Source: Desulfarculaceae bacterium
GTDB taxonomy: Bacteria; Desulfobacterota; Desulfarculia; Desulfarculales; Desulfarculaceae
Direction of reading: 5' to 3'
Assembly (NCBI GenBank): GCA_020444545.1
Contig: JAHLKT010000002.1
Span: forward strand, 152,870 to 216,869
DNA: 64,000 nucleotides
Position numbers and translations under genes: made by a program. This document shows positions 3,264-64,000 of this stretch, one piece after another. Under the pieces are notes generated by a model. The model made no database searches, was not told where the DNA came from, and was given only the letters and a program-made list of their open reading frames with translations. Every line of letters begins with the position of its first letter. Within the stretch, counting starts at the first letter, position 1.

Positions 3264-5420
3264 CTAATCACCTCCCAAGACGTGCACTTCCTCTAGGGGG
3301 CACACGGTCATCAGGGGACAGGTTTCCTCGTCGGAGCCCAGGTGGGCTGACTCGTGGATGGCCCCCAGAGCCACCGAGGCCAGGGGATAGACGTGATCCT
3401 CCCCGATCTTGGCCAGCAGGTGGGTCCGCTTCATGGCTTCCAGCACGTTTTCCTTGAGGTGGCTGAAGCTGATGTCGTAGCCAGCGCTACGCACCTGGTC
3501 CACCAACAGCGACAGGGTGTCCTCGCCCGAGGCGTCGATGTCGTTGATGCCGTTGGCCACCACCAGGATGTGCTTGAGCTTGGGCATTTCGCGGATGCGC
3601 TCGTTGATCTGGTCCTCCAGGAAGCTGGCGTTGGCGAAGAACAAGGGACCGTCGAAACGAACCACGGCGATGTGCTCGCACTCGGCCAGGCTGAAGTGCT
3701 CCGCGTCGCGCAGGGAGCAGTCTTCGTGCATGGACAGCTTGGCCACCCGGGGACGCATGCTCTTATAGAGGAACACCAAGAGCGAAAGCACCACCCCGAT
3801 CATGATGCCCTTGTCCAAATGGGGGGCGAAGATCAGGGTGCCCACGAAGGTGATGATGCTTATGGCTCCATCGTACCATTGGGCCTTCCAGGCGTGCACA
3901 AAACCGCTCACGTTGATAAGACCCACCACGGCCATCATGATTACCGCCGCCAACACCGCCTGAGGCAAGTGGTACAACAACGGCGTGAAAAACAAAAGCA
4001 CTATCACCACCATCAGGCCGGTGACCACGCTGGACAGGCCGGTTACCGCGCCAGCCTGCAAGTTCACCGCCGAGCGCGAGAACGACCCCGATACCGGATA
4101 GCTCTTGCCCAGGCAGCCGATCATGTTGGCCAGGCCCTGGCCGATAAGCTCCTGGTTGGGGTCCAGGCGCTGGCCGGTCTTGGCGGCCATGGCCTTGGCG
4201 ATGGAGATGGCCTCCATGAAGCCCAACAGGGAGATGATGACCGCGTAGGGGAACAGCTGGAGGATGATGCCCCAGTCCATGGTGGGCGCGCTGAGGGTGG
4301 GCAGGCCGGGCGGGATGTCGGCCACCACCGCCCCGCCGCCGGCCATGCGCAGGCTGGCCAGGTCCAGGCCCCGGTTGCCCACCATGACCCGCCACACCCG
4401 GCCGTCGCCCTTGACCCCCTGGGGCACTTTGCCCTCGGGCCAGAAGCGCATCCGGCCGTCCGGGCCTTCCTCGCCCACGAAGATGTAGGAGCGCAGGTCC
4501 TCGCGCAGCAGGTGGGCCTTGCCCTTTTCCAGCTCTATCTTGGCCGTGTCCATGCTGGCCTGCTGGTGCAGCTTCATCACCTCCAAGGATTCCGCGCCTT
4601 GGTTGTCGGCCGCCTTGCGGGCCGCTACGTTGATGTCGGCCCGCTCCTGGCCCAGGTTGTTGATGCGCTCCACCTCCTGGTTGTAGGCCACGATCTGGGC
4701 CCGCACCTTGGCCGACTGGATGGCATCCAGGGGCACCTTGGCGTCGTGCTGGAAGCCGATGGCCCAGGAGATGAGGGTGGTCACCGCCACCGCCACCAGG
4801 ACGTAGGGGATCTTGGGGTTGATCCGCTTGAGGCCCCACATGATGATGAAGGCCCCCACCCCCATGGCAAGGGTGGGCCAGTGGGTGTAGTGCAGCGCGC
4901 CCTCCAGCACCCGCCAGATCGTCTCGTAATGATGAGGGGCCTTGTCAACGTAGACCCCGAACATCTTGGAGAGCTGGCTGGAGGCGATGATGATGGCCGC
5001 CGCGTTGGTGAAGCCGTTGACCACCGGGTGGGACAAAAAGTTCACCACCAAGCCCAAACGCAGCACACCCAGGGCGAACTGGAAGGCGCCCACGATGAGG
5101 GCCAAGAGCACCGCGTAGGCGATGAAGGCTTCGCTGCCCGCGGTGGCCAGGGGCTCCAGCGAGGCGGCGGTCATCAGTGAGACGATGGCCACCGGCCCGG
5201 TGGCCAGCTGCATGGACGAGCCGAACATGGCCGCGATCATGGGGGGCAGGAAAGCGGCGTAAAGGCCGTAGTAGGCCGGCAGGCCGGCCAACTGGGCATA
5301 GGCCATGGACTGGGGTATGAGCACCAGGGCCACGGTGATCCCGGCCAGCAGGTCCACCCGGAAGGCAGCTCCGGAATACCCTTTGAACCAGCCCAGGAAA
5401 GGGAATATGCGACTCAGCAT
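3264..5420 (-). CDS. SulP-family anion permease with a C-terminal STAS domain
   Basis: 718-aa ORF. It carries the SulP N-terminal signature (FRVDLLAGITVALVLIPQSMAYAQLAGLPAYYGLYAAFLPPMI), many TM helices and the IPPGLP motif. The C-terminal STAS reads IAVVRFDGPLFFANASFLEDQI...VANGINDIDASGEDTL. It contains an unusual soluble insertion (see findings). Confidence 0.9.
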   Translation of the reverse strand: MLSRIFPFLGWFKGYSGAAFRVDLLAGITVALVLIPQSMAYAQLAGLPAYYGLYAAFLPPMIAAMFGSSMQLATGPVAIVSLMTAASLEPLATAGSEAFIAYAVLLALIVGAFQFALGVLRLGLVVNFLSHPVVNGFTNAAAIIIASSQLSKMFGVYVDKAPHHYETIWRVLEGALHYTHWPTLAMGVGAFIIMWGLKRINPKIPYVLVAVAVTTLISWAIGFQHDAKVPLDAIQSAKVRAQIVAYNQEVERINNLGQERADINVAARKAADNQGAESLEVMKLHQQASMDTAKIELEKGKAHLLREDLRSYIFVGEEGPDGRMRFWPEGKVPQGVKGDGRVWRVMVGNRGLDLASLRMAGGGAVVADIPPGLPTLSAPTMDWGIILQLFPYAVIISLLGFMEAISIAKAMAAKTGQRLDPNQELIGQGLANMIGCLGKSYPVSGSFSRSAVNLQAGAVTGLSSVVTGLMVVIVLLFFTPLLYHLPQAVLAAVIMMAVVGLINVSGFVHAWKAQWYDGAISIITFVGTLIFAPHLDKGIMIGVVLSLLVFLYKSMRPRVAKLSMHEDCSLRDAEHFSLAECEHIAVVRFDGPLFFANASFLEDQINERIREMPKLKHILVVANGINDIDASGEDTLSLLVDQVRSAGYDISFSHLKENVLEAMKRTHLLAKIGEDHVYPLASVALGAIHESAHLGSDEETCPLMTVCPLEEVHVLGGD

Positions 5421-5454
5421 TTCGTCCGCTCTCCATTGGTCTGGATGGTCATTG

Positions 5455-6813
<1,359 letters not shown>

Positions 6814-6816
6814 GGT

Positions 6817-8250
<1,434 letters not shown>

Positions 8251-8489
8251 CGCGTTCCCTTGTCCCGCGCGCGGCATGGCTTGGCCGGCCCCGGCCGGGG
8301 CGCGCCGGGCGGCCCCTGGCATAAATCCGGCTCTCAGGATGTCGCCGCTGGCGGAACTCATGCGGCTTTTGTCTGAAGGATTCGTGCCAAATTTCTCAAG
8401 CTCGGGGACAATGGGCTGAATTGCCTCGCTTATCAGCCTAATTTGGTCTCGATGCGGTTCTTGGTCAACCGTTACAGTATGCAACGAAA

Positions 8490-8504
8490 TGGTAGGGCAA
8501 ATGC
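8490..8504 (+). promoter_or_regulatory. Candidate sigma-54 (-24/-12) promoter element
   Basis: TGGTAGGGCAAATGC has GG and GC at the canonical spacing of TGGCAC-N5-TTGC. It lies on the plus strand, about 245 nt upstream of the NarL-type regulator and beside an NtrC-type activator operon. The flanking bases deviate from consensus. Confidence 0.2.
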
Positions 8505-8747
8505 CAGATAAAGTAAATGAATATTTACATAAATTTAGCTGGGCCACTTAGGGAGAGACATGTTGCAAGATTAAACGTTTTTCAGTCGAAATAGCGAGGA
8601 GAGCACCCGGCCCGGCGAGGCAAGGGCGGGGGAGGGCCATGGCGCGGGGCCGCGCCGCGTCCCTGCGGGCGACAAATCGGGATGCGGTTCTTTAGTTGTG
8701 TGGAATCTTGGGGATTGTTCCGTATAATCGGCTTAAAGGAGGGCGCT

Positions 8748-9404
8748 TTGAAAATTCGCCTTTTACTTGTCGATGATCACAGCCTGTTTCGCCTGGGCAT
8801 CCACACCCTGCTCACCGAGCAGCCGGACATGGAGGTGGTGGCCGAGGCCGACAACGGCCGCGCTGCCGTGCGTCTGGCCGAGAAGGAGTGCCCGGACGTG
8901 GTGGTCATGGACATCTCCATGCCCAACCTCAACGGCATCGAGGCCACCAGCGCCATCCTGGCCAATTGCCCCACCACCAAGGTGGTGGCCCTGTCCATGC
9001 ACAACGAGGAGCGCTACGTCCTGGGCATGCTCAAGGCCGGGGCCAGCGCCTATCTACTCAAGGACAGCCCCCTGGAAGACGTGGTCAGTTCCATCCGCAC
9101 GGTGCACAATGGCGGCACTTTTTTGTCGCCCGCCATCGCCGGGGTGGTGCTGGGGGGCATACGCCAGCCCCGCGCCCAGGAAAAGGGCTCGGTCTCCCAG
9201 GTGCTCACCCCCCGCGAGCGCGAGGTGCTCCAGCTCATCGCCGAGGCCCGCACCTCCGAAGAAATCGCGGACATGCTCTCCCTGAGCGTCAAGACGGTCT
9301 ACACCCACCGCCGCAACATCATGGAAAAGCTCCAGGCGCGCAACGTGGCCGACCTGACCAAGATCGCCATCCAGGAAGGCCTGACCACCCTGCAAAGACG
9401 ATGA
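8748..9404 (+). CDS. NarL/FixJ (LuxR-type HTH) response regulator
   Basis: TTG start at 8748 lies 6 nt after AAGGAGGG (8735-8742). The track ORF starts at 8682, in frame. REC: KIRLLLVDDHSLFRLG...VMDISMPNLNG...VVALSMH. C-terminal GerE/LuxR HTH: LTPREREVLQLIAEARTSEEIADMLSLSVKTVYTHRRNIMEKL. Confidence 0.85.
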   Translation: MKIRLLLVDDHSLFRLGIHTLLTEQPDMEVVAEADNGRAAVRLAEKECPDVVVMDISMPNLNGIEATSAILANCPTTKVVALSMHNEERYVLGMLKAGASAYLLKDSPLEDVVSSIRTVHNGGTFLSPAIAGVVLGGIRQPRAQEKGSVSQVLTPREREVLQLIAEARTSEEIADMLSLSVKTVYTHRRNIMEKLQARNVADLTKIAIQEGLTTLQRR

Positions 9405-54791: not shown

Positions 54792-55283
54792 TCTTACCTC
54801 TTTCGAAAGCAAAGAAACGGCGGGGATGGCTATGGAGCGATCCTCAAGTCCCTGCTTTGCATGCAGTCTTTTTAGACAGCCTACCGCCCCACATCTTAAG
54901 GGGCGGGTGAATGGTAGTTATAATATGGCTACAATGTAACTGAGTGTCAACCATAAAAACCACGGCAAGGCTTTATGTTAAAAATTCGGCCAGATGAGCG
55001 AAATTAGGGACAAAATCGTAGTTGAGGTTCGAGAGGGCACCTGTAAACCCCCTGTGATTGGTGGGGGCATGGCCCGGCGAAATTTGACCAGCTAGGGCAT
55101 AGGCTTTAGTATGAGCCCTAGGGGAGGGCTCGGGCGCGCCGCCGTGGCTGCTACGAAAAATATCCATAAAAGACATTAATATTCGCCCCTTACCCCCCAT
55201 GGTCCCCGCCAGGCCCTGGGACGCGTCCGCCGGAGTAATGACATGCCCGATTTGCACACCGCCTGCCGGGAGCCCGTGACCCC

Positions 55284-58200
55284 ATGAGCCTGGAGCCCAA
55301 CCAGCGCCGCGCCCTTTGCGGCATCTGCCCGGCCGGGTGCTGGATAATCGCCACCTACGATGGGGACGGCCGCCTGGCCAAGGTGGAGCCCGACCCGGCC
55401 TCGCCCCTGGGCATCACCTGCCGCCTGGGCGACCACTCGCCCGAGATCCTGTATTCCCCCGAGCGCCTGAAGACTCCCCTGCGCCGCAAGGGCCCCAAGG
55501 GCACCTACGATTTCGAGCCCATTTCCTGGGACGAGGCCTTCACGGCGATTGCCGAGCGCCTGCAAGGCATCAAGGCCGAGCACGGTCCCGAGGCCACCTG
55601 CGTGTACACCGGGCGCGGCTCCTTCGAGCTGGCCATGTGCGACCTGTACCAGCCCAAGGGCGTGGCGGTCTCCTCGGCCTCCTCGCTTTTGTTCCCCTTC
55701 GGATCGCCCAACACCATGGGCGTGGGCGCCTTGTGCTATGTGTCCTACGCCATGATCGCGCCCCATGTGACCCTGGGGAGTATGCACATCACCATGTTCA
55801 GCGACCTGGAGAACGCGGAGTTGATCGTGGTGTGGGGGGCCAACCCGGCCACGGACAGCCCGCCCATGGACTATCGCCGCATCGCCCAAGCGGTGGAGCG
55901 CGGGGCGCGCCTTGTGGTCATCGACCCCCGCCGCACCCTCACCGCCAAAATGCCGGGCGCGCGCTGGGTGCCCATCCGGCCGGGCACCGACGGAGCCCTG
56001 GCGCTGGGCATGTGCGCGGTGCTCATTTCCGAGGAACTCTACGACGAGGAGCTGACCCGCGACTGGACCCACGGCTTCGATCAGTTCGCTGCTTACGCCC
56101 AGCACTTTAGGCCCGAGGTGGTGGAGAACATCACCGGGGTGCCCGCTGACACGGTGAAGGAGCTGGCTCGGGAGATCGCCGGGGCGGCCGGGGCCGCGCC
56201 GGTGATGTACACCGGCCTGGAGTATTCCGACTCCGGGGTGCAGGCCATCCGGGCCACCCTGGCCCTGTGGGCCCTGGCCGGCCAGCTCGACGTGCCCGGC
56301 GGGCGCTGCTTTGCCATGCGGGAGAACAACTATCCCATCAACCGGGAACACCTGGTGGCCAACCCGGCCCCGGAAAAGGCCCTGGGCCGCGAGAGCTTCC
56401 CGCTCTACACCCTGTACCGCGAGGAGTCCCACGCCAACTGCCTGCCCCGCGCGGTGTTGGAGGGCGAGCCCTATCCCATCAAGGCCCTGATCAGTTTGGG
56501 CGCGTCGCTGTGCACCTCCTGGCCGAGGGCCTCGGTGTGGAAGGACACCCTGGCCGCCCTGGATTTCCTGGTGTGCGTCGACATCTTCCACAACGCTGAC
56601 ACCGCCTACGCGGACCTGGTCTTGCCCGCGGCCACCTGGTACGAGATCGAGTCCTACATGACCTACGGCCCCACCTTCCGCTTGCGCGAGCAAGTGGTGC
56701 CCCCGGTGGGCGAGGCCAAAAACGCCTTTTTCATCTTCAGCGAGATCGCCAAGCGCCTGGGCTACGGCCATCTTTACCCCCAGAACGAGCAGGAGGTGCT
56801 GGAGCGTGCCCTGGAGGGCGGGCCCTTCAGTTTGGACCAGGTGCGCGCCGCCGGGGGGCAAGTGAGTCTGCCCGGGGCCATGATGCAGTACAAGAAGTGG
56901 CAAAAGGGCCTGCTGCGCCCAGACGGCAAGCCCGGCTTCGACACCCCCACCGGCAAGATCGAGCTGTTCTCCACCATCCTGGCCGAGCACGGCTATGCCG
57001 GGCTGCCCGAGTACACCGAGCCCTCGGAGAGCCCGGTGTCGCGCCCCGACCTGGCCGAGGACTACCCCCTGGTGTTCAACTCCGGGGCGCGGGTGAGCAC
57101 TGACTTCCGCTCCCAATTCCACCACATCCCCGGCTTGGTAAAACGCCGCCCCGAGCCCACCGTGACCCTCAACACCCACGACGCCGAGGCGCGGGGCATC
57201 GTCAACGGCGACTGGGTGCGCCTTTCCTCGCCGCGCGGCGCGGTGCGTTTGCGGGCGCATGTGACCGAGGACATCGTGCCCGGCGCGGTGGACGCCAACA
57301 TGGGCGGGGGAGGGCCGCTAGGCCCCCAGGCCTGGCAGGACTGCAACATCAACGACCTCACCGAGCTGAAGTACGACCCCATCAGCGGCTTCCCCATTTA
57401 CAAGGCGCTCTTGTGCGAGGTGGCCAAAGAGCAGGGCGCGGGCGAGGCCGTGGCGGTGGACTCCGGCGAAGGCGCGGCGGCCCAGGTGCGGCCTGCGCCG
57501 CGCGCTGCCCAGGCGGGGCCGCGCATCTACCTGGACCACAACGCCACCACGCCCCTGGACCCGGGGGTGGCTTCGGCCATGAGCGAATTTTTGGCGGCCG
57601 AGTTCGGCAACCCTTCGGCCATCTACCGCGAGGGGCGCGCGGCGGCCACGGCCCTGGCCGAGGCGCGGCGCAAGCTGGCCTCCCTGCTGGGGACCACCGC
57701 CCGCCGCCTGACTTTCACCTCCGGGGGCAGCGAGGCCAACAACCAGGTGATCAAGGGCGTGGCCCTAGACCCGGCCAACCGGGACCAGCGCTTCATCACC
57801 TCCAGCGTGGAGCACCCCTCGGTGCTGAGGGTCTTCTCGTGGCTGGCCGATCTGGGCTGGGACGTGGTGATTCTGCCCGTGGACCGCGAGGGTCTGGTGC
57901 GGCCGGATGACCTGGTCGAAGCCATGGAGAAGCCCACCGCCCTGGTGAGCATCATGCTGGCCAACAACGAGACCGGCGGCTTGCAGCCCATCGCGGAGCT
58001 GGCCGCCCTGGCCCATGGGGCCGGGGCCTTGTTCCACACGGACGCGGTGCAGGCGGTGGGCAAGATTCCGCTGAACGTGGGTGAGCTGGGCGTGGACTTC
58101 CTGAGCCTGTCCGGCCACAAGCTGCACGGGCCCAAGGGAGTGGGCGCGCTCTACGCGCGGCAGGGATTGGAGCTGGCCCCCCTGGTGCATGGCGGCGGCC

Positions 58201-58679
58201 AGGAGGGCGGCCGGAGGGCGGGCACCGAGAACACCGCATCCGTCGTGGGCCTGGGCGCGGCGGCCGAGCTGGCCGCGCGCAGCCTGGGCAAAATGGGCGG
58301 CCAGGTGGCCGCGCTGCGCGACCGGCTGTGGTCGGGCATCCGGGAGCTGGTGCCGGACGCGCGGCTCAATGGCCCGCGAGAGGGACGTTTGCCCAACACC
58401 CTGAGCGTGTCCCTGCCCGGCATCCGGGGCGAGTCCTTGGTGCTGGCCCTGGATCAGAAGGGCGTGGCCTTGTCTTCGGGCTCGGCCTGCCGGGCGGGCA
58501 GCCCGGAGCCCTCGCACGCGCTGTTGGCCATGGGCCTGAGCGACGAGGAGGCGCACTGCGCCTTGCGTTTTTCCCTGGGCCGCGAGAACACGGCCGATGA
58601 GATCGAGCGAACCTTGCAACTAATGCGGCAGGTGATCGCCGAGAGCGAGAACCTGGTGCGCTTCGTGCCCTGCCGGTAA
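55284..58679 (+). CDS. Molybdopterin-oxidoreductase :: cysteine-desulfurase fusion (metallopterin-dependent ergothioneine synthase-like)
   Basis: 1131-aa ORF. Residues 1 to about 715 form a bis-MGD-type oxidoreductase: N-terminal cluster CGICPAGC...C, Molybdopterin and Molydop_binding regions (VTLNTHDAEARGIVNGDWVRLSSPRGAV). An Ala/Gly/Pro linker follows. Residues from about 745 to the end form a class-V aminotransferase / NifS-IscS domain: IYLDHNATTP, TSGGSEANN, PLP lysine SGHKLHGPKG, catalytic Cys SSGSAC. Confidence 0.85.
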   Translation: MSLEPNQRRALCGICPAGCWIIATYDGDGRLAKVEPDPASPLGITCRLGDHSPEILYSPERLKTPLRRKGPKGTYDFEPISWDEAFTAIAERLQGIKAEHGPEATCVYTGRGSFELAMCDLYQPKGVAVSSASSLLFPFGSPNTMGVGALCYVSYAMIAPHVTLGSMHITMFSDLENAELIVVWGANPATDSPPMDYRRIAQAVERGARLVVIDPRRTLTAKMPGARWVPIRPGTDGALALGMCAVLISEELYDEELTRDWTHGFDQFAAYAQHFRPEVVENITGVPADTVKELAREIAGAAGAAPVMYTGLEYSDSGVQAIRATLALWALAGQLDVPGGRCFAMRENNYPINREHLVANPAPEKALGRESFPLYTLYREESHANCLPRAVLEGEPYPIKALISLGASLCTSWPRASVWKDTLAALDFLVCVDIFHNADTAYADLVLPAATWYEIESYMTYGPTFRLREQVVPPVGEAKNAFFIFSEIAKRLGYGHLYPQNEQEVLERALEGGPFSLDQVRAAGGQVSLPGAMMQYKKWQKGLLRPDGKPGFDTPTGKIELFSTILAEHGYAGLPEYTEPSESPVSRPDLAEDYPLVFNSGARVSTDFRSQFHHIPGLVKRRPEPTVTLNTHDAEARGIVNGDWVRLSSPRGAVRLRAHVTEDIVPGAVDANMGGGGPLGPQAWQDCNINDLTELKYDPISGFPIYKALLCEVAKEQGAGEAVAVDSGEGAAAQVRPAPRAAQAGPRIYLDHNATTPLDPGVASAMSEFLAAEFGNPSAIYREGRAAATALAEARRKLASLLGTTARRLTFTSGGSEANNQVIKGVALDPANRDQRFITSSVEHPSVLRVFSWLADLGWDVVILPVDREGLVRPDDLVEAMEKPTALVSIMLANNETGGLQPIAELAALAHGAGALFHTDAVQAVGKIPLNVGELGVDFLSLSGHKLHGPKGVGALYARQGLELAPLVHGGGQEGGRRAGTENTASVVGLGAAAELAARSLGKMGGQVAALRDRLWSGIRELVPDARLNGPREGRLPNTLSVSLPGIRGESLVLALDQKGVALSSGSACRAGSPEPSHALLAMGLSDEEAHCALRFSLGRENTADEIERTLQLMRQVIAESENLVRFVPCR

Positions 58680-58699
58680 GGCAGCGGGGAGCGGCGGAT

Positions 58700-59707
58700 A
58701 TGCGCCTGAAAGCCTGCATCAAGGCCGAACAAGAGCGGCTGGAGATTCACGACTATTTGGACCTGGACCACCGCGAGGAGATGCGGCGCCTGGTGGGGGA
58801 GGGGCTGAGCGCGGCCGACAAGTGGCTGCACTGTAAATACCTCTACGACCAGCGCGGTTCCGAGCTCTTCGACCAAATCTGCCGCACCCCGGAGTATTAC
58901 CCCACCCGCACCGAGATGGCCCTCTTGGAGCGCCACGCCGGGGAGATCATGGATTTCTTCGCCTGGCGCGGGGGCGACCTGGTGGAGATGGGCTCGGGCT
59001 CCAACCAGAAGATACGCCTGCTCCTGGACGGCCACGCGCCGCGAGCCGGAGGGCATCTGCGCTACGTGCCCTTTGACATCAGCCAGAGCGCCCTGGAGGA
59101 GGCGGCCCGCGAGCTCCTGGAGCTATATCCCGGCCTGGAGGTCATGGGCATCGTGGGCGACTACACCCGCCATTTGGCCGCGTTGCCGCCGGGCCGCAAG
59201 CTGGTGCTGTTTTTGGGCAGCACCCTGGGCAACTTCAACGAGGCGGACGGCCTGGCCCTGCTCAGGGGCGTGGCCGCGGCCATGGGCCCGGAGGACCGCT
59301 TTCTCCTGGGCCTGGACATGGTCAAGCCGGTGGAGGTGCTGGAGGCGGCTTACAACGACGCGGCCGGGGTGACCAGCCGCTTCATCAAGAATATCCTGGC
59401 CCACCTCAACCGCGAGCTGGGCGCGGACTTCCCTCTGGAGCACTTCGAGCACCACGCTTTTTTCAACCCCCAACGCGAATGCATGGAGATGCACCTCCGG
59501 GCGCGGCGAGAGCTGAGCTGCCGGGTGGGCGACCTGGGCATGGAAGTGGGCTTCGAGCCCGGCGAGACGATCCACGTGGAGATCGCCCGCAAGTTCGCCC
59601 CCGAGAGCGCCCGCGCCATGCTGGAGCAGGCCGGGTTCCGCCTCACCCGCTGGTTCAGCGACGAGCGGGGCTGGTTCTCCCTGGTGGAGCTGGCCTTGGC
59701 GGGGTAG
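58700..59707 (+). CDS. egtD: EgtD-type L-histidine N-alpha-methyltransferase
   Basis: 335-aa ORF. KYLYDQRGSELFDQICRTPEYYPTRTE, VEMGSGSNQKIRLLL, YVPFDISQSAL, FLGSTLGNFN and AYNDAAGVTSRF match the EgtD / Methyltransf_33 family pattern. Confidence 0.88.
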   Translation: MRLKACIKAEQERLEIHDYLDLDHREEMRRLVGEGLSAADKWLHCKYLYDQRGSELFDQICRTPEYYPTRTEMALLERHAGEIMDFFAWRGGDLVEMGSGSNQKIRLLLDGHAPRAGGHLRYVPFDISQSALEEAARELLELYPGLEVMGIVGDYTRHLAALPPGRKLVLFLGSTLGNFNEADGLALLRGVAAAMGPEDRFLLGLDMVKPVEVLEAAYNDAAGVTSRFIKNILAHLNRELGADFPLEHFEHHAFFNPQRECMEMHLRARRELSCRVGDLGMEVGFEPGETIHVEIARKFAPESARAMLEQAGFRLTRWFSDERGWFSLVELALAG

Positions 59708-59794
59708 GGGGCGGCCTTCGCATCAGCTAGGCGTTGCGAAGGTGTTTGCCTTGTGCAAGTTGCCCAGGTCGGGAGGGGATGGGCGCTTGGCATA

Positions 59795-59850
59795 AAAAGA
59801 AGGACCAGCTTGCGGCTGGTCCTTTTGTCTTTTGTGTGGCTGGGGCTACA
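59795..59850. repeat. Repeat R1: terminator hairpin plus a truncated tRNA-3'-end-like stub
   Basis: AAAAGAAGGACCAGCTTGCGGCTGGTCCTTTTGTCTTTTGTGTGGCTGGGGCTACA aligns with R2 and R3. Only about 15 nt of the tRNA-like part remain. Confidence 0.6.
59802..59834 (+). terminator. Rho-independent terminator after egtD (part of repeat R1)
   Basis: GGACCAGC-TTGCG-GCTGGTCC (59802-59822) followed by TTTTGTCTTTTG. Confidence 0.65.
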
Positions 59851-60109
59851 TGATTGCATAATACTGGCTTTGAAGTGAAAGGCAGATTGAGTTGCATAAT
59901 AGGTAATTAATTTTTAAAGGCGCTCAATCGTGTGGATTTAGTGGGCAATGGTAGCAGTTCAGAGCCTTTATACTAATTTATTATTAGCAGGATGGATTTA
60001 TTTGGTTCACAACGAATAATCCATTATTTGTTGCGGAATTAGGGATTGAGTTTTTATGGAACCTCGTATACTTTGAAGTGAATTTATCAACCATAATAGG
60101 GGATGATAA

Positions 60110-61300
60110 TTGACCATCGACGAATTACGTTTGGCAGCGGAAACGTACCTAGCCCCCCTGTTGTCTGCCCAGGTCCTTCCTGCCCTCGAACCTTGCCAAC
60201 CATATTGTAGCCGTGTTGCTGCACTAGACCCTAGCAGAATTGGTATCAAAGCAAGCGATGGTGATACAGAAAGGATTGTGATTAACCGGACTCCAGGGTT
60301 TCCTCCAGAAGAACTCCAAATAGCAAAGGATTTTACAGAAGAGTTATTTAATATTTATGGGGCTACGGCGCAGGGTTATCGGCAAGAGTTGTTATCATTT
60401 CTTCCTGCGAGAGCAATTGCTCGGCATCTGGGGGGAATGGAGGCAACCAAGATCGTTTTGCGTCAATTTGAAAAATGGGCTGCGAGGACATATGAAGGAG
60501 GGGCCATCTCGTCTTTAGTGGGTATCGATCCAGGATGTACTGAACGTGATGTTTTACTGGCAGAACTTTTTGAACACGATTTTTCGGCGGTGTTGAGCAA
60601 TGGGTTCGATACACTCCTGTTGTCTTCGCCTGGGGGAAGTGTGGGAGGTGCCAGACAATTATCCGTGAGTGAAGACAATTTGCGATTTGCGCCTTATAGA
60701 CTTAGCCCTGTTGCAGGGTGGTCCGAAGGCAATAAGGTCGCTTTCGTACTGAATAGGCTCGGTGAACAATTGGTTTTTAAGGGAAAGAAACTAATATTTG
60801 CAAAAAGGCGTGGAGAATGGCGCTATTATTCCCACGAAATGTATATCAGACAAATGCAGCCGCCTCAAAAGAGGGAACTACGTGAGGCTGTGTACGAAAG
60901 TTGTATCGATACTTCCTTCGCACGAACAGGTGGATGCATAATCATTGTTAGGTCCGGTTCCGTTGATGATGCAAATGAGTTGATATCTAGTTCGGATCGT
61001 CTAGATGGAACAAATCAATCTATTAAAACAAAGACAATTAAAACGATGACGAATAAAAAATTCCAAAAATTAGATCGACGATTGCGACAGGAGCTTCTCG
61101 CATTAGATGGTGCAACAATATTGACCCATGATGGAGATGTCCTCGCGGTTGGGGCAATAATTAGCGTTCCTTCTGGTAGCGACGGTGGAGGCCGTAGAGC
61201 GGCCGCCAAAAAGGGAAGCACGTTAGGGCTGGGCATTAAAGTGTCTGAAGATGGTGAGATAACAGCATTTAAGAACGAGGAACAGGTCTTTACAGCCTAG
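60110..61300 (+). CDS. Sensor-domain + diadenylate-cyclase-fold (DisA_N/DAC-like) protein
   Basis: 396-aa ORF with a TTG start behind AGGGGA, inside a visibly AT-rich islet. The C-terminal ~130 aa carry the ordered DAC motifs GGCIIIV, LDGATIL, GGGRRAAA (in place of GTRHRAA) and KVSEDGEITAF (compare VSEETGxIS). The N-terminal ~240 aa were not recognised. Confidence 0.65.
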   Translation: MTIDELRLAAETYLAPLLSAQVLPALEPCQPYCSRVAALDPSRIGIKASDGDTERIVINRTPGFPPEELQIAKDFTEELFNIYGATAQGYRQELLSFLPARAIARHLGGMEATKIVLRQFEKWAARTYEGGAISSLVGIDPGCTERDVLLAELFEHDFSAVLSNGFDTLLLSSPGGSVGGARQLSVSEDNLRFAPYRLSPVAGWSEGNKVAFVLNRLGEQLVFKGKKLIFAKRRGEWRYYSHEMYIRQMQPPQKRELREAVYESCIDTSFARTGGCIIIVRSGSVDDANELISSSDRLDGTNQSIKTKTIKTMTNKKFQKLDRRLRQELLALDGATILTHDGDVLAVGAIISVPSGSDGGGRRAAAKKGSTLGLGIKVSEDGEITAFKNEEQVFTA

Positions 61301-61333
61301 AAGATCAAATGTCTTTTAATATTGGTTCTTAAA

Positions 61334-61413
61334 GTAGAAGGACCAACTTGCGGCTGGTCCATTTATCTTCATGCCTGGCGGGACGACCCAGTTCCGAGCC
61401 GCCGCCCATGGCG
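61334..61413. repeat. Repeat R2: degenerate terminator hairpin plus a decayed tRNA 3'-end fragment
   Basis: GTAGAAGGACCAACTTGCGGCTGGTCCATTTATCTTCATGCCTGGCGGGACGACCCAGTTCCGAGCCGCCGCCCATGGCG aligns with R3, with several substitutions and indels. Confidence 0.6.
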
Positions 61414-61433
61414 TGGCGACGGCCCAGATCGAA

Positions 61434-61601
61434 TCAGTAACTGTTGATCAGGTCGGCCTTGGCCTGAAAAACATTGCTGACCGAATCGCCGAACAGGAAA
61501 GAGGCGAAGGCGATCCCTCCGGCCAGGAACGACAGGATAAGGGCGTATTCCAGCGCGCTGACGCCGGTGTCGTCTAAGGCAAGTTGGGCTAGGCGGGGCA
61601 T
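61434..61601 (-). CDS. Flp/Fap-family type IVb pilin (orphan)
   Basis: The ATG at 61599-61601 follows GGAGG. The product is MPRLAQLALDDTGVSALEYALILSFLAGGIAFASFLFGDSVSNVFQAKADLINSY. The G/xxxEY processing motif and hydrophobic helix are typical of Flp prepilins. Confidence 0.6.
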   Translation of the reverse strand: MPRLAQLALDDTGVSALEYALILSFLAGGIAFASFLFGDSVSNVFQAKADLINSY

Positions 61602-61698
61602 GGGGCAGGCCTCCAACCAAAAATTGCTATGTTAGCTAGAAATTTTATCACGGGCCGCTTCAAGAAGGAAATCGCTTCTTTGCCCTCCCGAACCGAGA

Positions 61699-61786
61699 CA
61701 AAAAAGGACCAGCCTTGCGGCTGGTACTTTTATCTTTTGCTTGGCGGGGACGACCGGGCTCGAACCGGCGGCCTGAATGCATGGCG
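61699..61786. repeat. Repeat R3: terminator hairpin plus a well-preserved tRNA 3' fragment (T-arm, acceptor 3' strand, CCA; minus strand)
   Basis: The reverse complement of 61742-61786 is CGCCATGCATTCAGGCCGCCGGTTCGAGCCCGGTCGTCCCCGCCA. This gives a T-stem GCCGG/CCGGT, T-loop TTCGAGC, acceptor 3' strand and GCCA end. No matching 5' acceptor strand (GGGGACG) or anticodon arm follows, so it is a fragment and not a gene. Confidence 0.7.
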
Positions 61787-61926
61787 TATTTAGTCACCCG
61801 CATGCCGTCAAAAAGGCATGGGGTTTGTTTTCAACAAGCCATTTGAGATAACATGGCGAGTCATAGGGCATTAATGGTCTACGGCCACCCAGGGATTCTG
61901 CTGCCCTTAATATCTACCAGGCTTGC

Positions 61927-62997
61927 ATGTGGCTGGGTTCCATGATCGACCTCACCGCAAATGATGCGAATCTGCTTCTGAAGATATCGGAAAAGTTATC
62001 CGGCAGCCTGAGCCAAATAGAAGTCAGGCTTTCGGCGGGGGAGGAGCTTTTACGGCTTCTCAGGGCCGACTATCTGGCCTCATACGTTTGGGAGCCAGCC
62101 AAAAAAGTTTTTGAGCAGGGCGTCAGCATCAACATGGATCCCAAAAACCTGGCGCGCTACGACGAATACTTTCAGTTCCGCGATCCCATCACGCCAGCAT
62201 TGCAGAAACAACGGAGCGCCACTCCGGTACACCGCGTAATGCCCCAGGGAGACCTGGAGCGGACGGAGTTCTTCAACGATTTTCTTGCCAGAGACGGCTT
62301 GCACCATGGGATCAACCTGTACGCCTACGATGGAAACCTGAATATCGGCGACCTTCGTATCTGGCGCAACAAACGTCAGCCGGAGTTTGATGGACGAGAC
62401 GTTCAACTGCTGAACCTGGTCAAGCCTCACTTCAAGAACGCCTTGCGCAACGCGAGGGTCCGCCTGGCCTTGCAAAAAGGGGCGGAATCCACGACGCGCC
62501 ATTATTGGGAGAACTCCCCGATCCCCTGTTTCGTCTTTGACCGGGAATTGAGCCTGTTTTTCCGCAACCAAGCCAGCATGAGGTTGGAAAAGCAGATGCC
62601 GGAGCGTCAGTTTTCCCAATTGATGTCCCAGGTGTCGCGGGCCGCTGGGGGGAAGCTGCCGGAAGACGGCTGGGGGCCTTTCCAGATTTCGGTGTTCCGT
62701 CCCGAACCGAGCGGTGATGAAAAGCGGCACCTGGTGGTTCATGTGCAACGCGCCGCTCAACCGAGGTTGCACGCCGCTTGGCTGCGCTCCCGGTTCGGCT
62801 TGTCTCAGCGCGAGTCGCAGATAGCCATGTTGTTGGTAAAGGGCCTGGCCGACAAGGAGGTCGCGGGAATACTCTCGATTACCTTCAACACGGTGCGCGC
62901 TCACATCAAGAGCATTTTTCATAAGCTGGAAGTTACCAACCGCACCGAATTGCTGCACACCATGATGCACGATCTGGTGGACATCACCCTGGATTAG
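61927..62997 (+). CDS. LuxR-family transcriptional regulator with an N-terminal ligand-sensor-like domain
   Basis: 356-aa ORF. C-terminal GerE/LuxR HTH: LSQRESQIAMLLVKGLADKEVAGILSITFNTVRAHIKSIFHKLEVTNRTELL. The N-terminal ~270 aa have no receiver domain. Confidence 0.8.
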   Translation: MWLGSMIDLTANDANLLLKISEKLSGSLSQIEVRLSAGEELLRLLRADYLASYVWEPAKKVFEQGVSINMDPKNLARYDEYFQFRDPITPALQKQRSATPVHRVMPQGDLERTEFFNDFLARDGLHHGINLYAYDGNLNIGDLRIWRNKRQPEFDGRDVQLLNLVKPHFKNALRNARVRLALQKGAESTTRHYWENSPIPCFVFDRELSLFFRNQASMRLEKQMPERQFSQLMSQVSRAAGGKLPEDGWGPFQISVFRPEPSGDEKRHLVVHVQRAAQPRLHAAWLRSRFGLSQRESQIAMLLVKGLADKEVAGILSITFNTVRAHIKSIFHKLEVTNRTELLHTMMHDLVDITLD

Positions 62998-63098
62998 GCC
63001 CACCTCCCCAATCCTGGGGATACCATTGTCCCTTCTCTCCGTGTTCGACTGCTTCTCGGAAAGCCACCCGCAACCAATGCCGGTCCAAAGGAGCAGTC

Positions 63099-64000
63099 AT
63101 GTCCAATAATGAAGAGATGTCCAGAAGGCAATTCGTGAAGATGTCCCTGGCCGCCGGGGCAGGCGCCGCCTTGTTGCCGGCCATGGGGGCAACGGTGTTC
63201 GCGTCCGGCCAAGCCGGAGCAACCGCCGGCTTGCCGGTGTACCTGCTCGAAGAAAAGATCCGTCAGGGCAAGCTGACTGCGAGCAAGTTGGTGGAGATCT
63301 ACCTGGAGCGCATCGCCAAATACGGCGGCAAAAAGGGCCTGAACTGCTATATAACCTTGGCCGGCCAGCAGGCGCTGGCCCGGGCCAAAAAGCTGGACGC
63401 CATGGCCGCCCACCACAAATTCGCCGGCCCGCTGCACGGCATCCCGGTTGCCGTGAAGGACAACCTAGACACCATGGAGATAGTCACCACCGGCGGCTCC
63501 AAGATTTTAGCCCAGTGGCGGCCGCCCCAGGACGCCTATGCCGTGGCCCGCCTGCAACAGGCCGGCGCCATCATCCTGGGCAAGACCAACATGCACGAGT
63601 TCGCCTTCGGCATCACCACCAACAACCCTCACTACGGCCCCTGCCGCAACCCTTATGACCAGACCCGCATCCCCGGGGGCTCCAGCGGCGGCTCGGCCGC
63701 GGCTGTGGCGGCCGACCTCTGCGCCGCTGCCCTGGGAACCGATACCGGCGGCTCGGTGAGGATACCTTCGGCCCTTTGCGGAGTGGTCGGTCTTAAGCCG
63801 ACCCTGGGCCTGGTGGGCCGCGGCGGCATGATGTACTTGTCCTTCACCCGCGACTGCATCGGGCCTATTACCAGGTCGGTCAGCGATGCGGCTATCGTCT
63901 TGGAGGCCATCGCCGGCAAAGACGCCCGCGACCCGGAAAGCGGCCGGGGCCCCGCCAAAATCCCCAATTATTCCGCCTTTGCCAAAACCGGCCTCAAGGG
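63099..64000 (+). CDS. Tat-exported amidase-signature family amidase (3' end runs off the window)
   Basis: The ATG at 63099 follows AAAGGAGCAGTC. It has the twin-arginine motif SRRQFVKMSLAAGAG and amidase signatures GIPVAVKDNLDT and GGSSGGSAAAVAADLCAAALGTDTGGSVRIPSALCGVVGLKPT. It is absent from the ORF track because there is no stop in the window. Confidence 0.88.
   Translation, partial: MSNNEEMSRRQFVKMSLAAGAGAALLPAMGATVFASGQAGATAGLPVYLLEEKIRQGKLTASKLVEIYLERIAKYGGKKGLNCYITLAGQQALARAKKLDAMAAHHKFAGPLHGIPVAVKDNLDTMEIVTTGGSKILAQWRPPQDAYAVARLQQAGAIILGKTNMHEFAFGITTNNPHYGPCRNPYDQTRIPGGSSGGSAAAVAADLCAAALGTDTGGSVRIPSALCGVVGLKPTLGLVGRGGMMYLSFTRDCIGPITRSVSDAAIVLEAIAGKDARDPESGRGPAKIPNYSAFAKTGLK

Follow-up and report, generated by a model that had tools for sequence, protein, structure and literature searches.

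What does a solitary gene in an AT-rich islet do, and how did it come to lie next to metabolic genes in G+C-rich DNA? The question is raised by a 1.5-kb segment near the right end of a 64,000-nt stretch of DNA from a Desulfarculaceae bacterium (contig JAHLKT010000002.1, positions 152,870 to 216,869; hereafter the window), where a single gene of 396 codons is enclosed by repeats and the flanking genes encode an EgtD-like methyltransferase and a molybdopterin-oxidoreductase/NifS fusion. A preliminary description, made from the DNA letters alone, had taken the gene for an acquired nucleotide-signal generator with a diadenylate cyclase (DAC) fold or, alternatively, for a DAC-fold protein repurposed for binding. 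Our analysis favors, with a probability of roughly 0.55, the reading that the islet is acquired cargo in a decayed tRNA-Asp integration hotspot and that its gene encodes a partner-less, regulated DAC-type signal synthase of a defence-associated family.

The assignment of the protein to the DAC fold comes from structure prediction. An AlphaFold2 model was built from a 30-sequence alignment (pLDDT 91.8, pTM 0.89), and the top 50 matches to this model in a Foldseek search of the PDB were all DAC domains of the CdaA/DacA/DisA/DacM type (E 4e-6, probability 1.0), with a target-normalised TM of ~0.6 over ~160 columns and 16-24% sequence identity. On the predicted model, the DAC fold of residues ~250-396 is established, by structure comparison only, and the fold proposed in the preliminary description for the C-terminal third of the protein thus stands. 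The translation also contains the four motifs on which that proposal was based, GGCIIIV, LDGATIL, GGGRRAAA and KVSEDGEITAF, in the order claimed and in the single 396-aa gene. The gene, its predicted parts and its motifs are as follows.

60110..61300, plus strand: 396-aa gene, start codon TTG, ribosome-binding site AGGGGA at 60099-60104
60110..60439, plus strand: N-terminal module, residues 1-~110, predicted as a helix, a four-stranded sheet and a helical bundle
60437..60844, plus strand: putative second DAC-like fold, residues ~110-245, degenerate and without catalytic motifs (Foldseek)
60857..61297, plus strand: predicted DAC-fold domain, residues ~250-396 (Foldseek, weak Pfam DAC matches in relatives, hhalign)
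61106..61114, plus strand: DGA motif D333-G334-A335
61175..61207, plus strand: glycine-rich loop G356-S357-D-G359-G360-G361-R362-R-A364-A365-A366, in place of the canonical GTRHRAA
61244..61255, plus strand: S379-E-D381-G382, where canonical DACs have the VSEE(T)G strand

Conservation of the active-site region was assessed in 30 relatives that share 40-72% identity. D333 and G334 of the DGA motif are invariant in all 30, together with A335, as are S379, D381 and G382. In the glycine-rich loop the invariant positions are G356-S357, G359-G360-G361-R362 and A364-A365-A366. The RHR triad is therefore altered, as the preliminary description had noted, and an invariant GS-x-GGGR-x-AAA loop is found instead. 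Alignment by hhalign to DisA (E 4.9e-4) and CdaA gave one consistent register, which is indicative only. In this register G360-x-R362 falls on G-T-R of GTRHR, position 363 (R, T or L) falls on the His, and the invariant A364 falls on the second Arg. The residues found at the positions of D333, G334, G360 and R362 (D, G, G and R) are those that a 2026 preprint reports as conserved in all curated bacterial DACs (PMC13640721). CdaG, which has GSRYNS, is also without the canonical RHR, and its homologues produce c-di-AMP in vitro (10.64898/2026.08.10.743927). Since the D-G...G-x-R residues are kept and an enzyme without RHR makes c-di-AMP, it is plausible from the residues retained that the window protein is catalytically competent, and its product may differ from c-di-AMP.

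The N-terminal ~240 residues had been called unfamiliar, and this was correct only in part. Residues 1-~110 matched nothing in the PDB, Pfam or BFVD, and they are presumed to form a regulatory or sensor module. Residues ~110-245, on the other hand, do not belong to one large unknown domain; in the predicted structure they look like a second, degenerate DAC-like fold. When residues 1-250 were modelled separately (pLDDT 88.6), the only significant PDB matches were DAC domains (DacA/CdaA/CdaM), with Foldseek E values of 3e-4 to 2.5e-3, TM 0.41-0.48 and a root-mean-square deviation of 7-9 Å. The middle domain has family-invariant residues of its own (YEG, SNGFDT, APYR and LNRxGE). Its hhalign comparison with the C-terminal DAC domain was not significant (E 0.0066 for a register that was shifted, 0.24 for the expected register), nor was that with the DACNH domain of CdaG (E 0.05). 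Since these profile-profile comparisons were not significant, it is the Foldseek result that suggests a tandem of DAC folds.

A hypothetical protein of a Desulfarculaceae metagenome-assembled genome has the same sequence as the window protein, which is a member of a family of ~400-aa proteins with hundreds of full-length relatives; the MTIDELR start is present in homologues as well. In an exhaustive profile search 1574 clusters formed at 50% identity were recovered with E < 1e-3, and 539 clusters with E < 1e-30. Relatives are nevertheless rare, being found in 93 of 185,579 species when one genome per species was searched. Their hosts are scattered and belong to Pseudomonadota, Desulfobacterota, Verrucomicrobiota, Acidobacteriota, Actinomycetota, Clostridia, Planctomycetota and several further phyla, some of which are candidate phyla. 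Three plasmids carry members of the family, among them an Agrobacterium vitis plasmid whose copy lies beside a type II cyclic oligonucleotide-based antiphage signalling system (CBASS), and further copies lie among insertion sequences. Phage genomes are essentially without the family: a phage collection gave one partial match and the BFVD viral fold library none. Two longer relatives, P0249 (607 aa) and P0067 (522 aa), are fused at the N-terminus to another domain, which is Schlafen/AlbA_2 in one of them and HU (DNA-binding) in the other.

We examined the neighbours of the relatives by clustering and by Pfam and PADLOC scans. In about 16 of 80 loci the family gene lies inside a restriction-modification (R-M) operon. 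There it separates the restriction gene from the methylase or specificity gene, and the gaps range from -25 to +68 nt. The genes are arranged as hsdM-hsdS-[gene]-hsdR in ~11 loci, and in five loci a ~1000-aa N6/N4 methylase is followed by the family gene and then by a ~1040-aa ResIII helicase, an arrangement resembling type III R-M. Six loci (L001, L028, L035, L037, L043 and L047) contain a patatin and a CD-NTase of one lineage, with 54-79% mutual identity. In L028, from Vogesella alkaliphila (4078-9203), a patatin, a CD-NTase, a CdaG (DS-2C, 586 aa; DACNG 1.5e-66, DACNH 5.9e-31) and a family member follow one another on one strand. This locus is a DS-2/CBASS-DAC system of the published type plus a family gene, so that two different DAC-fold proteins are present in one locus. 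In L037 the family gene takes the position of CdaG, 31 nt after the CD-NTase.

Several surroundings were seen among close relatives that are 60-63% identical to the window protein. One (L149) has a patatin of the six-locus lineage directly upstream and no CD-NTase, and one from Crenobacter (L002) has a SLATT_5 two-transmembrane effector directly upstream. In Massilia (L089) the family gene is in an island with Cap15 and patatin CBASS; another copy is in an island that splits a Mg-chelatase/ComM-type gene and adjoins an nSTAND NTPase; and one (L147) is without a recognised partner. Relatives in defence loci with such varied partners fit a signal generator whose islet holds no effector; that the effector might be elsewhere had been considered possible in the preliminary description. 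Three other arrangements were observed. The closest relative (72% identity; L086, 4459-8194) follows a cNMP-binding Ser/Thr kinase and a PP2C phosphatase on the same strand, with a gap of 75 nt. In five metagenome-assembled genomes of Clostridia (L058, L059, L065, L070 and L072) an inosine-uridine nucleoside hydrolase (PF01156, E 1e-68) is encoded directly upstream on the same strand, and it may be a lineage-specific partner or effector. In L027 a Schlafen/AlbA_2 protein is encoded directly downstream of the family gene, within a type I R-M operon.

The composition of the islet shows that its gene is foreign DNA. In 300-nt segments the G+C content is 0.36-0.49 across 59850-61350 and 0.63-0.75 across 55050-59850, which bears out the low G+C that had been estimated by eye. 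To the right of the islet (61350-63150) G+C climbs back to 0.52-0.58 only. The 396-aa gene has 46.3% G+C, compared with 66.8% for the 5.7 kb upstream, and the G+C at its third codon positions (GC3) is 0.39 compared with ~0.9 in neighbouring host genes. Family genes elsewhere likewise tend to be poorer in G+C than the DNA around them: over 74 loci the difference has a median of -0.057, and in 57% of the loci it is below -0.05. Foreign origin, which the preliminary description had proposed, is thus supported. That the family is mobile and was probably acquired horizontally here is indicated by G+C and GC3, by its scattered distribution, by the copies on plasmids, among insertion sequences and in islands, and by the tRNA-Asp 3' end in the third of the repeats listed below. 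The islet sequence was found again in contigs of several samples.

59796..59849, no strand assigned: repeat R1, left edge of the islet; hairpin 59798-59826, then ~13 nt resembling the last bases of tRNA-Asp (minus strand)
61338..61406, no strand assigned: repeat R2, right edge of the islet; hairpin 61340-61360 and a degenerate 3' part of a pseudo-tRNA-Asp
61700..61774, minus strand: repeat R3, outside the islet; hairpin 61708-61725 and the last ~33 nt of tRNA-Asp(GTC) at 61742-61774

The bracketing repeats of the preliminary description are real, but there are three copies rather than two, and they combine terminator hairpins with tRNA-Asp 3' fragments. The repeat family (D1) comprises 59809-59849, 61347-61387 and 61714-61754, with 68-83% identity. 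Each copy consists of a G+C-rich hairpin, which scores as a terminator on both strands, and a minus-strand piece of the 3' end of tRNA-Asp. The hairpin sequence AGGACCAGCTTGCGGCTGGTCC occurs at 59801 and 61339, and in none of 100 shuffles was the AGGACCAGCTTGCGGCTGGTCC repeat reached. In the alignment the tRNA-Asp remnant is best preserved in R3, decayed in R2 and reduced to ~13 nt in R1, which is located directly 3' of the host EgtD-like gene. Exact matches to a 28-nt stretch of R3 were present in 56 metagenome contigs; ARAGORN was run on 20 of these and in 19 placed the stretch at the 3' end of tRNA-Asp(GTC). One item occupies each interval: the DAC-fold gene between R1 and R2, a Flp-type pilin open reading frame (ORF) between R2 and R3, and a LuxR regulator to the right of R3. 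With neither an integrase nor an intact tRNA present, the route by which the islet arrived can only be inferred; we infer that the repeats are a decayed tRNA-Asp integration hotspot in which the islet was left or to which it was mobilised by an integrase acting in trans. Like tRNA-linked islets and cis-mobilisable elements, the region has foreign composition and direct repeats that come from the 3' end of a tRNA, and each interval holds a single cargo gene. It differs from tRNA-linked islets in that the window holds no integrase and no intact tRNA-Asp. Ordinary att duplications are without a terminator hairpin, whereas each repeat here carries one.

The protein was compared with the known DAC systems. 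DAC groups enriched in defence loci have been reported to be CdaG/DS-2C and PanS only (10.64898/2026.08.10.743927; PMC13640721). The DAC catalytic residues are required for defence by DS-2/CBASS-DAC, and Acb1 blocks CBASS-DAC (PMC13092281; PMC13069673). CdaG/DS-2C (DefensePredictor DS-2, Liu-DS2) resembles the family in being a defence-island DAC with a non-canonical RHR region, in having a degenerate DAC-like domain directly before the active DAC (DACNH in CdaG, a predicted fold in the family), and in its association with the same patatin and CD-NTase lineage, the two genes standing side by side in L028. CdaG is, however, ~575-581 aa long and contains DACNG, DACNH and a C-terminal helical bundle, none of which is found in the 396-aa window protein. 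By hhalign the two gave E 0.018 for full-length profiles and 1.3e-3 for the DAC domains, and nothing for the N-terminal parts. The CBASS-DAC operon includes a patatin and a CD-NTase, whereas the window has neither; most family members are not beside CBASS and many are in R-M operons.

PanS shares with the family a defence-associated DAC fold, a G+C content below that of the host, frequent proximity to CBASS and a distribution mainly in bacteria without housekeeping c-di-AMP signalling. Minimal PanS with a two-transmembrane (2TM)-beta effector constitutes the Panoptoo/PanDA systems (10.64898/2026.08.10.743927; PMC13640721). PanS has ~150 aa and no extra domains and is >90% operonic with its 2TM-beta effector, while the window protein is 2.6x longer and the family has a 250-aa N-terminal region and no fixed partner; no 2TM-beta-barrel effector neighbour is present in the window. 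The family is thus neither CdaG/DS-2C nor PanS, and it probably escaped both DAC surveys because sequence models do not detect it. The canonical CdaA, DacA and DisA (PF02457) share with the window protein the fold, the DGA motif, G-x-R and the S-E/D strand. The window protein differs from them in its low identity (16-24%), in being below detection by Pfam, and in the RHR, which here becomes R-x-A after the invariant GS-x-GGG loop. CdaA and DisA have a membrane anchor or a DNA-scanning domain; the window protein has neither, and its gene is mobile rather than core.

A mechanism can be outlined from these comparisons. The protein would consist of three parts, as the predicted structure suggests: the N-terminal module comes first, a DAC-like fold without catalytic activity follows, and the last part is a DAC domain that is divergent yet probably active. 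A phage-related cue might activate this regulated nucleotidyl cyclase, which would make a c-di-AMP-like or related dinucleotide signal. The signal could then switch on a partner effector, which would be a CapV-type patatin phospholipase or a SLATT pore protein where one is adjacent. Since the window contains no partner, the window copy would be an orphan whose effector is elsewhere in the genome or lost. Patatin, CD-NTase, CdaG, Cap15, SLATT and R-M genes were absent both from the islet and from the remaining 62 kb of the window, and the ORF listing of the islet showed no further credible ORF, integrase or effector, in agreement with the preliminary description.

Several results weigh against this interpretation. 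The Pfam DAC model (PF02457) had no match in the window protein at E ≤ 1 and matched 4 of the 30 relatives weakly (best E 3.3e-5), and the DACN* domains had no match at all, neither DACNG nor DACNH being found in the 30 relatives. Membership in the DAC profile families, for which the preliminary description had proposed HMM searches, is thus not supported by these searches. Family profiles of the full-length protein and of the C-terminal domain found no DAC among PDB sequences. Since the Pfam and PDB-sequence profile searches fail, the DAC assignment depends on the predicted structure. When the window protein alone was searched against Pfam, PADLOC, NCBIfam and PDB sequences, nothing meaningful was matched, with 0 families of PADLOC-DB v2 at E ≤ 10, and phmmer searches of the PDB with P0118 and with the CdaG of L028 returned nothing useful. 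Automatic names in UniProt and JGI ('DAC domain-containing protein', 'DisA...') show that a DAC signature was picked up for some members. The RHR triad is incomplete, with a variable residue at the His position and an invariant Ala where the second Arg would be, and this could abolish or change catalysis. No universal partner was found across the family, and most loci, including the window, have no recognisable effector. Adjacency to defence genes may result in part from shared integration hotspots. As to the route of arrival, no integrase ORF was found within 59700-63100 (ORF list, Pfam) and no intact tRNA in the 64-kb window (ARAGORN).

The altered active site would also be expected if the protein were a pseudo-enzyme, that is, a DAC fold repurposed as a receptor or sponge for nucleotides or dinucleotides without synthesis. 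The replacement of RHR by GGGR-x-AAA and the failure of the Pfam DAC model agree with this explanation, as does the non-catalytic N-terminal DAC-like fold, which implies that the lineage tolerates dead DAC domains; moreover, the loci that bear a CD-NTase already own a signal synthase. Yet D333, G334, G360, R362, S379 and D381 are invariant among the relatives, CdaG is likewise without a canonical RHR and its homologues are active in vitro, and L149 pairs a patatin with the family gene in the absence of another cyclase. Because the D-G...G-x-R of all curated DACs is invariant here, we believe that a binding-only role is rather unlikely. The positions within R-M operons suggest another possibility. 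In type I R-M operons the gene prrC separates hsdS from hsdR, as some of the relatives do, and the family protein could be a self-contained guard of the PrrC type, restrained by the R-M complex and freed when a phage blocks restriction, whereupon its own nucleotide chemistry would harm the cell. The loci inside R-M operons (~16/80) show no signal-receptor effector, which would suit such a guard. Type I R-M operons, however, generally accept insertions of unrelated defence genes, there is no sign of toxicity, and the pairings with patatin and SLATT favour signalling. In addition, the window protein has neither the anticodon-nuclease nor the ATPase domains of PrrC/RloC, and the window copy is outside any R-M locus. 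We therefore consider this explanation improbable.

It is also conceivable, but doubtful, that the islet is a remnant, stranded when a larger island was deprived of integrase and effector, so that the gene has no current role in the host. The small size of the islet (1.5 kb), the decay of its att-like repeats and the absence of a partner, an integrase and an intact tRNA from the islet and the 64 kb are what such a remnant would leave. Against it, the reading frame is intact and of full length, every family-invariant residue is kept, the same sequence occurs in contigs of several samples, and other relatives, e.g. L147, are also without a recognised partner. A housekeeping c-di-AMP synthase of the host is very hard to reconcile with the data. 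A DAC fold is present and c-di-AMP occurs in deltaproteobacteria (review PMC10118264), but the GC3 of 0.39 versus ~0.9, the location between tRNA-fragment repeats, the occurrence of relatives in 93/185,579 species with no phyletic pattern and an architecture that is not that of CdaA or DisA all speak against it.

Returning to the reading of the gene as a defence-associated signal synthase, we consider what it would mean. DAC enzymes were tied to anti-phage immunity only in 2025-2026, in the two classes CdaG/DS-2C and PanS. The present family may be a third kind of defence-linked cyclase. This comparison covers CdaG/DS-2C and PanS; 22 DAC families were reportedly defined by Galperin in 2023 (in J Bacteriol). 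If this is true, the third class would be of a different build, a dead and a live DAC in tandem with a glycine-rich loop replacing RHR, and would occur in new contexts, i.e. two-gene modules with patatin or SLATT and sites in type I and type III-like R-M operons. A more speculative and doubtful extension is that these proteins are single-chain pseudo-heterodimers that make an asymmetric or linear signal for CapV or SLATT and guard R-M systems against anti-restriction proteins. Such a signal is possible because the pairing of a dead with a live DAC would break the two-fold symmetry of DAC dimers. The family was missed by the Pfam DAC model, PADLOC and NCBIfam despite its 539 clusters at E < 1e-30. 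L149 (patatin and DAC) and L037 (patatin, CD-NTase and DAC) would offer simple constructs with which to ask whether the DAC is sufficient to drive a CapV effector and what nucleotide the DAC makes. The window itself suggests how a gene of the defence type can survive on its own as cargo where a tRNA-Asp hotspot has decayed.

The gene is preceded by a leader that also attracted attention.

59850..60109, plus strand: AT-rich 260-nt leader with repeated motifs, a palindrome at 60010-60033 and the ribosome-binding site

The direct repeats TTGCATAATA (59854 and 59892) and CTTTGAAGTGAA (59868 and 60071) and the palindrome were all found where the preliminary description had located them. Among 1000 dinucleotide shuffles, 5 contained a direct repeat of 12 nt and 23 a palindrome arm of 11 nt, so that these motifs are moderately above chance. 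None of them was found upstream of homologues. An Rfam scan of 59000-62500 at E ≤ 1 gave no match, and the leader and the repeats are consequently not known RNAs.

To the right of the islet, the pilin ORF (61434-61616, minus strand) encodes 60 aa of the Flp/Fap type with the motif GVSALEYALIL (Pfam Flp_Fap, E 0.0067). It is the only gene between R2 and R3 and looks like a one-gene cassette of its own within an array of tRNA-Asp fragments. The regulator directly right of R3 (61927-62997, plus strand) is a 356-aa member of the LuxR/GerE family with a G+C of 0.52-0.58 and a GC3 of 0.72. The low-G+C region stops near 63100, where there is no intact tRNA. Searches for an allele free of the islet gave no record in an exact look-up of the EgtD-like neighbour and no match in a degenerate metagenome search with the 3' end of its gene. 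Far from the islet, a tblastn match of CdaG to window positions 7997-8179 (E 0.004) falls within a sensor histidine kinase and is regarded as chance. On the left, the plus-strand gene at 55284-58679 encodes a protein of 1131 aa in which a molybdopterin oxidoreductase (PF00384, PF01568) is fused to a class-V aminotransferase/cysteine desulfurase (PF00266), and the EgtD-like histidine methyltransferase (58700-59707, plus strand; PF10017, E 7.5e-108) is encoded directly downstream of it. This pair is unusual and may be linked to thiohistidine or ergothioneine-type biosynthesis.

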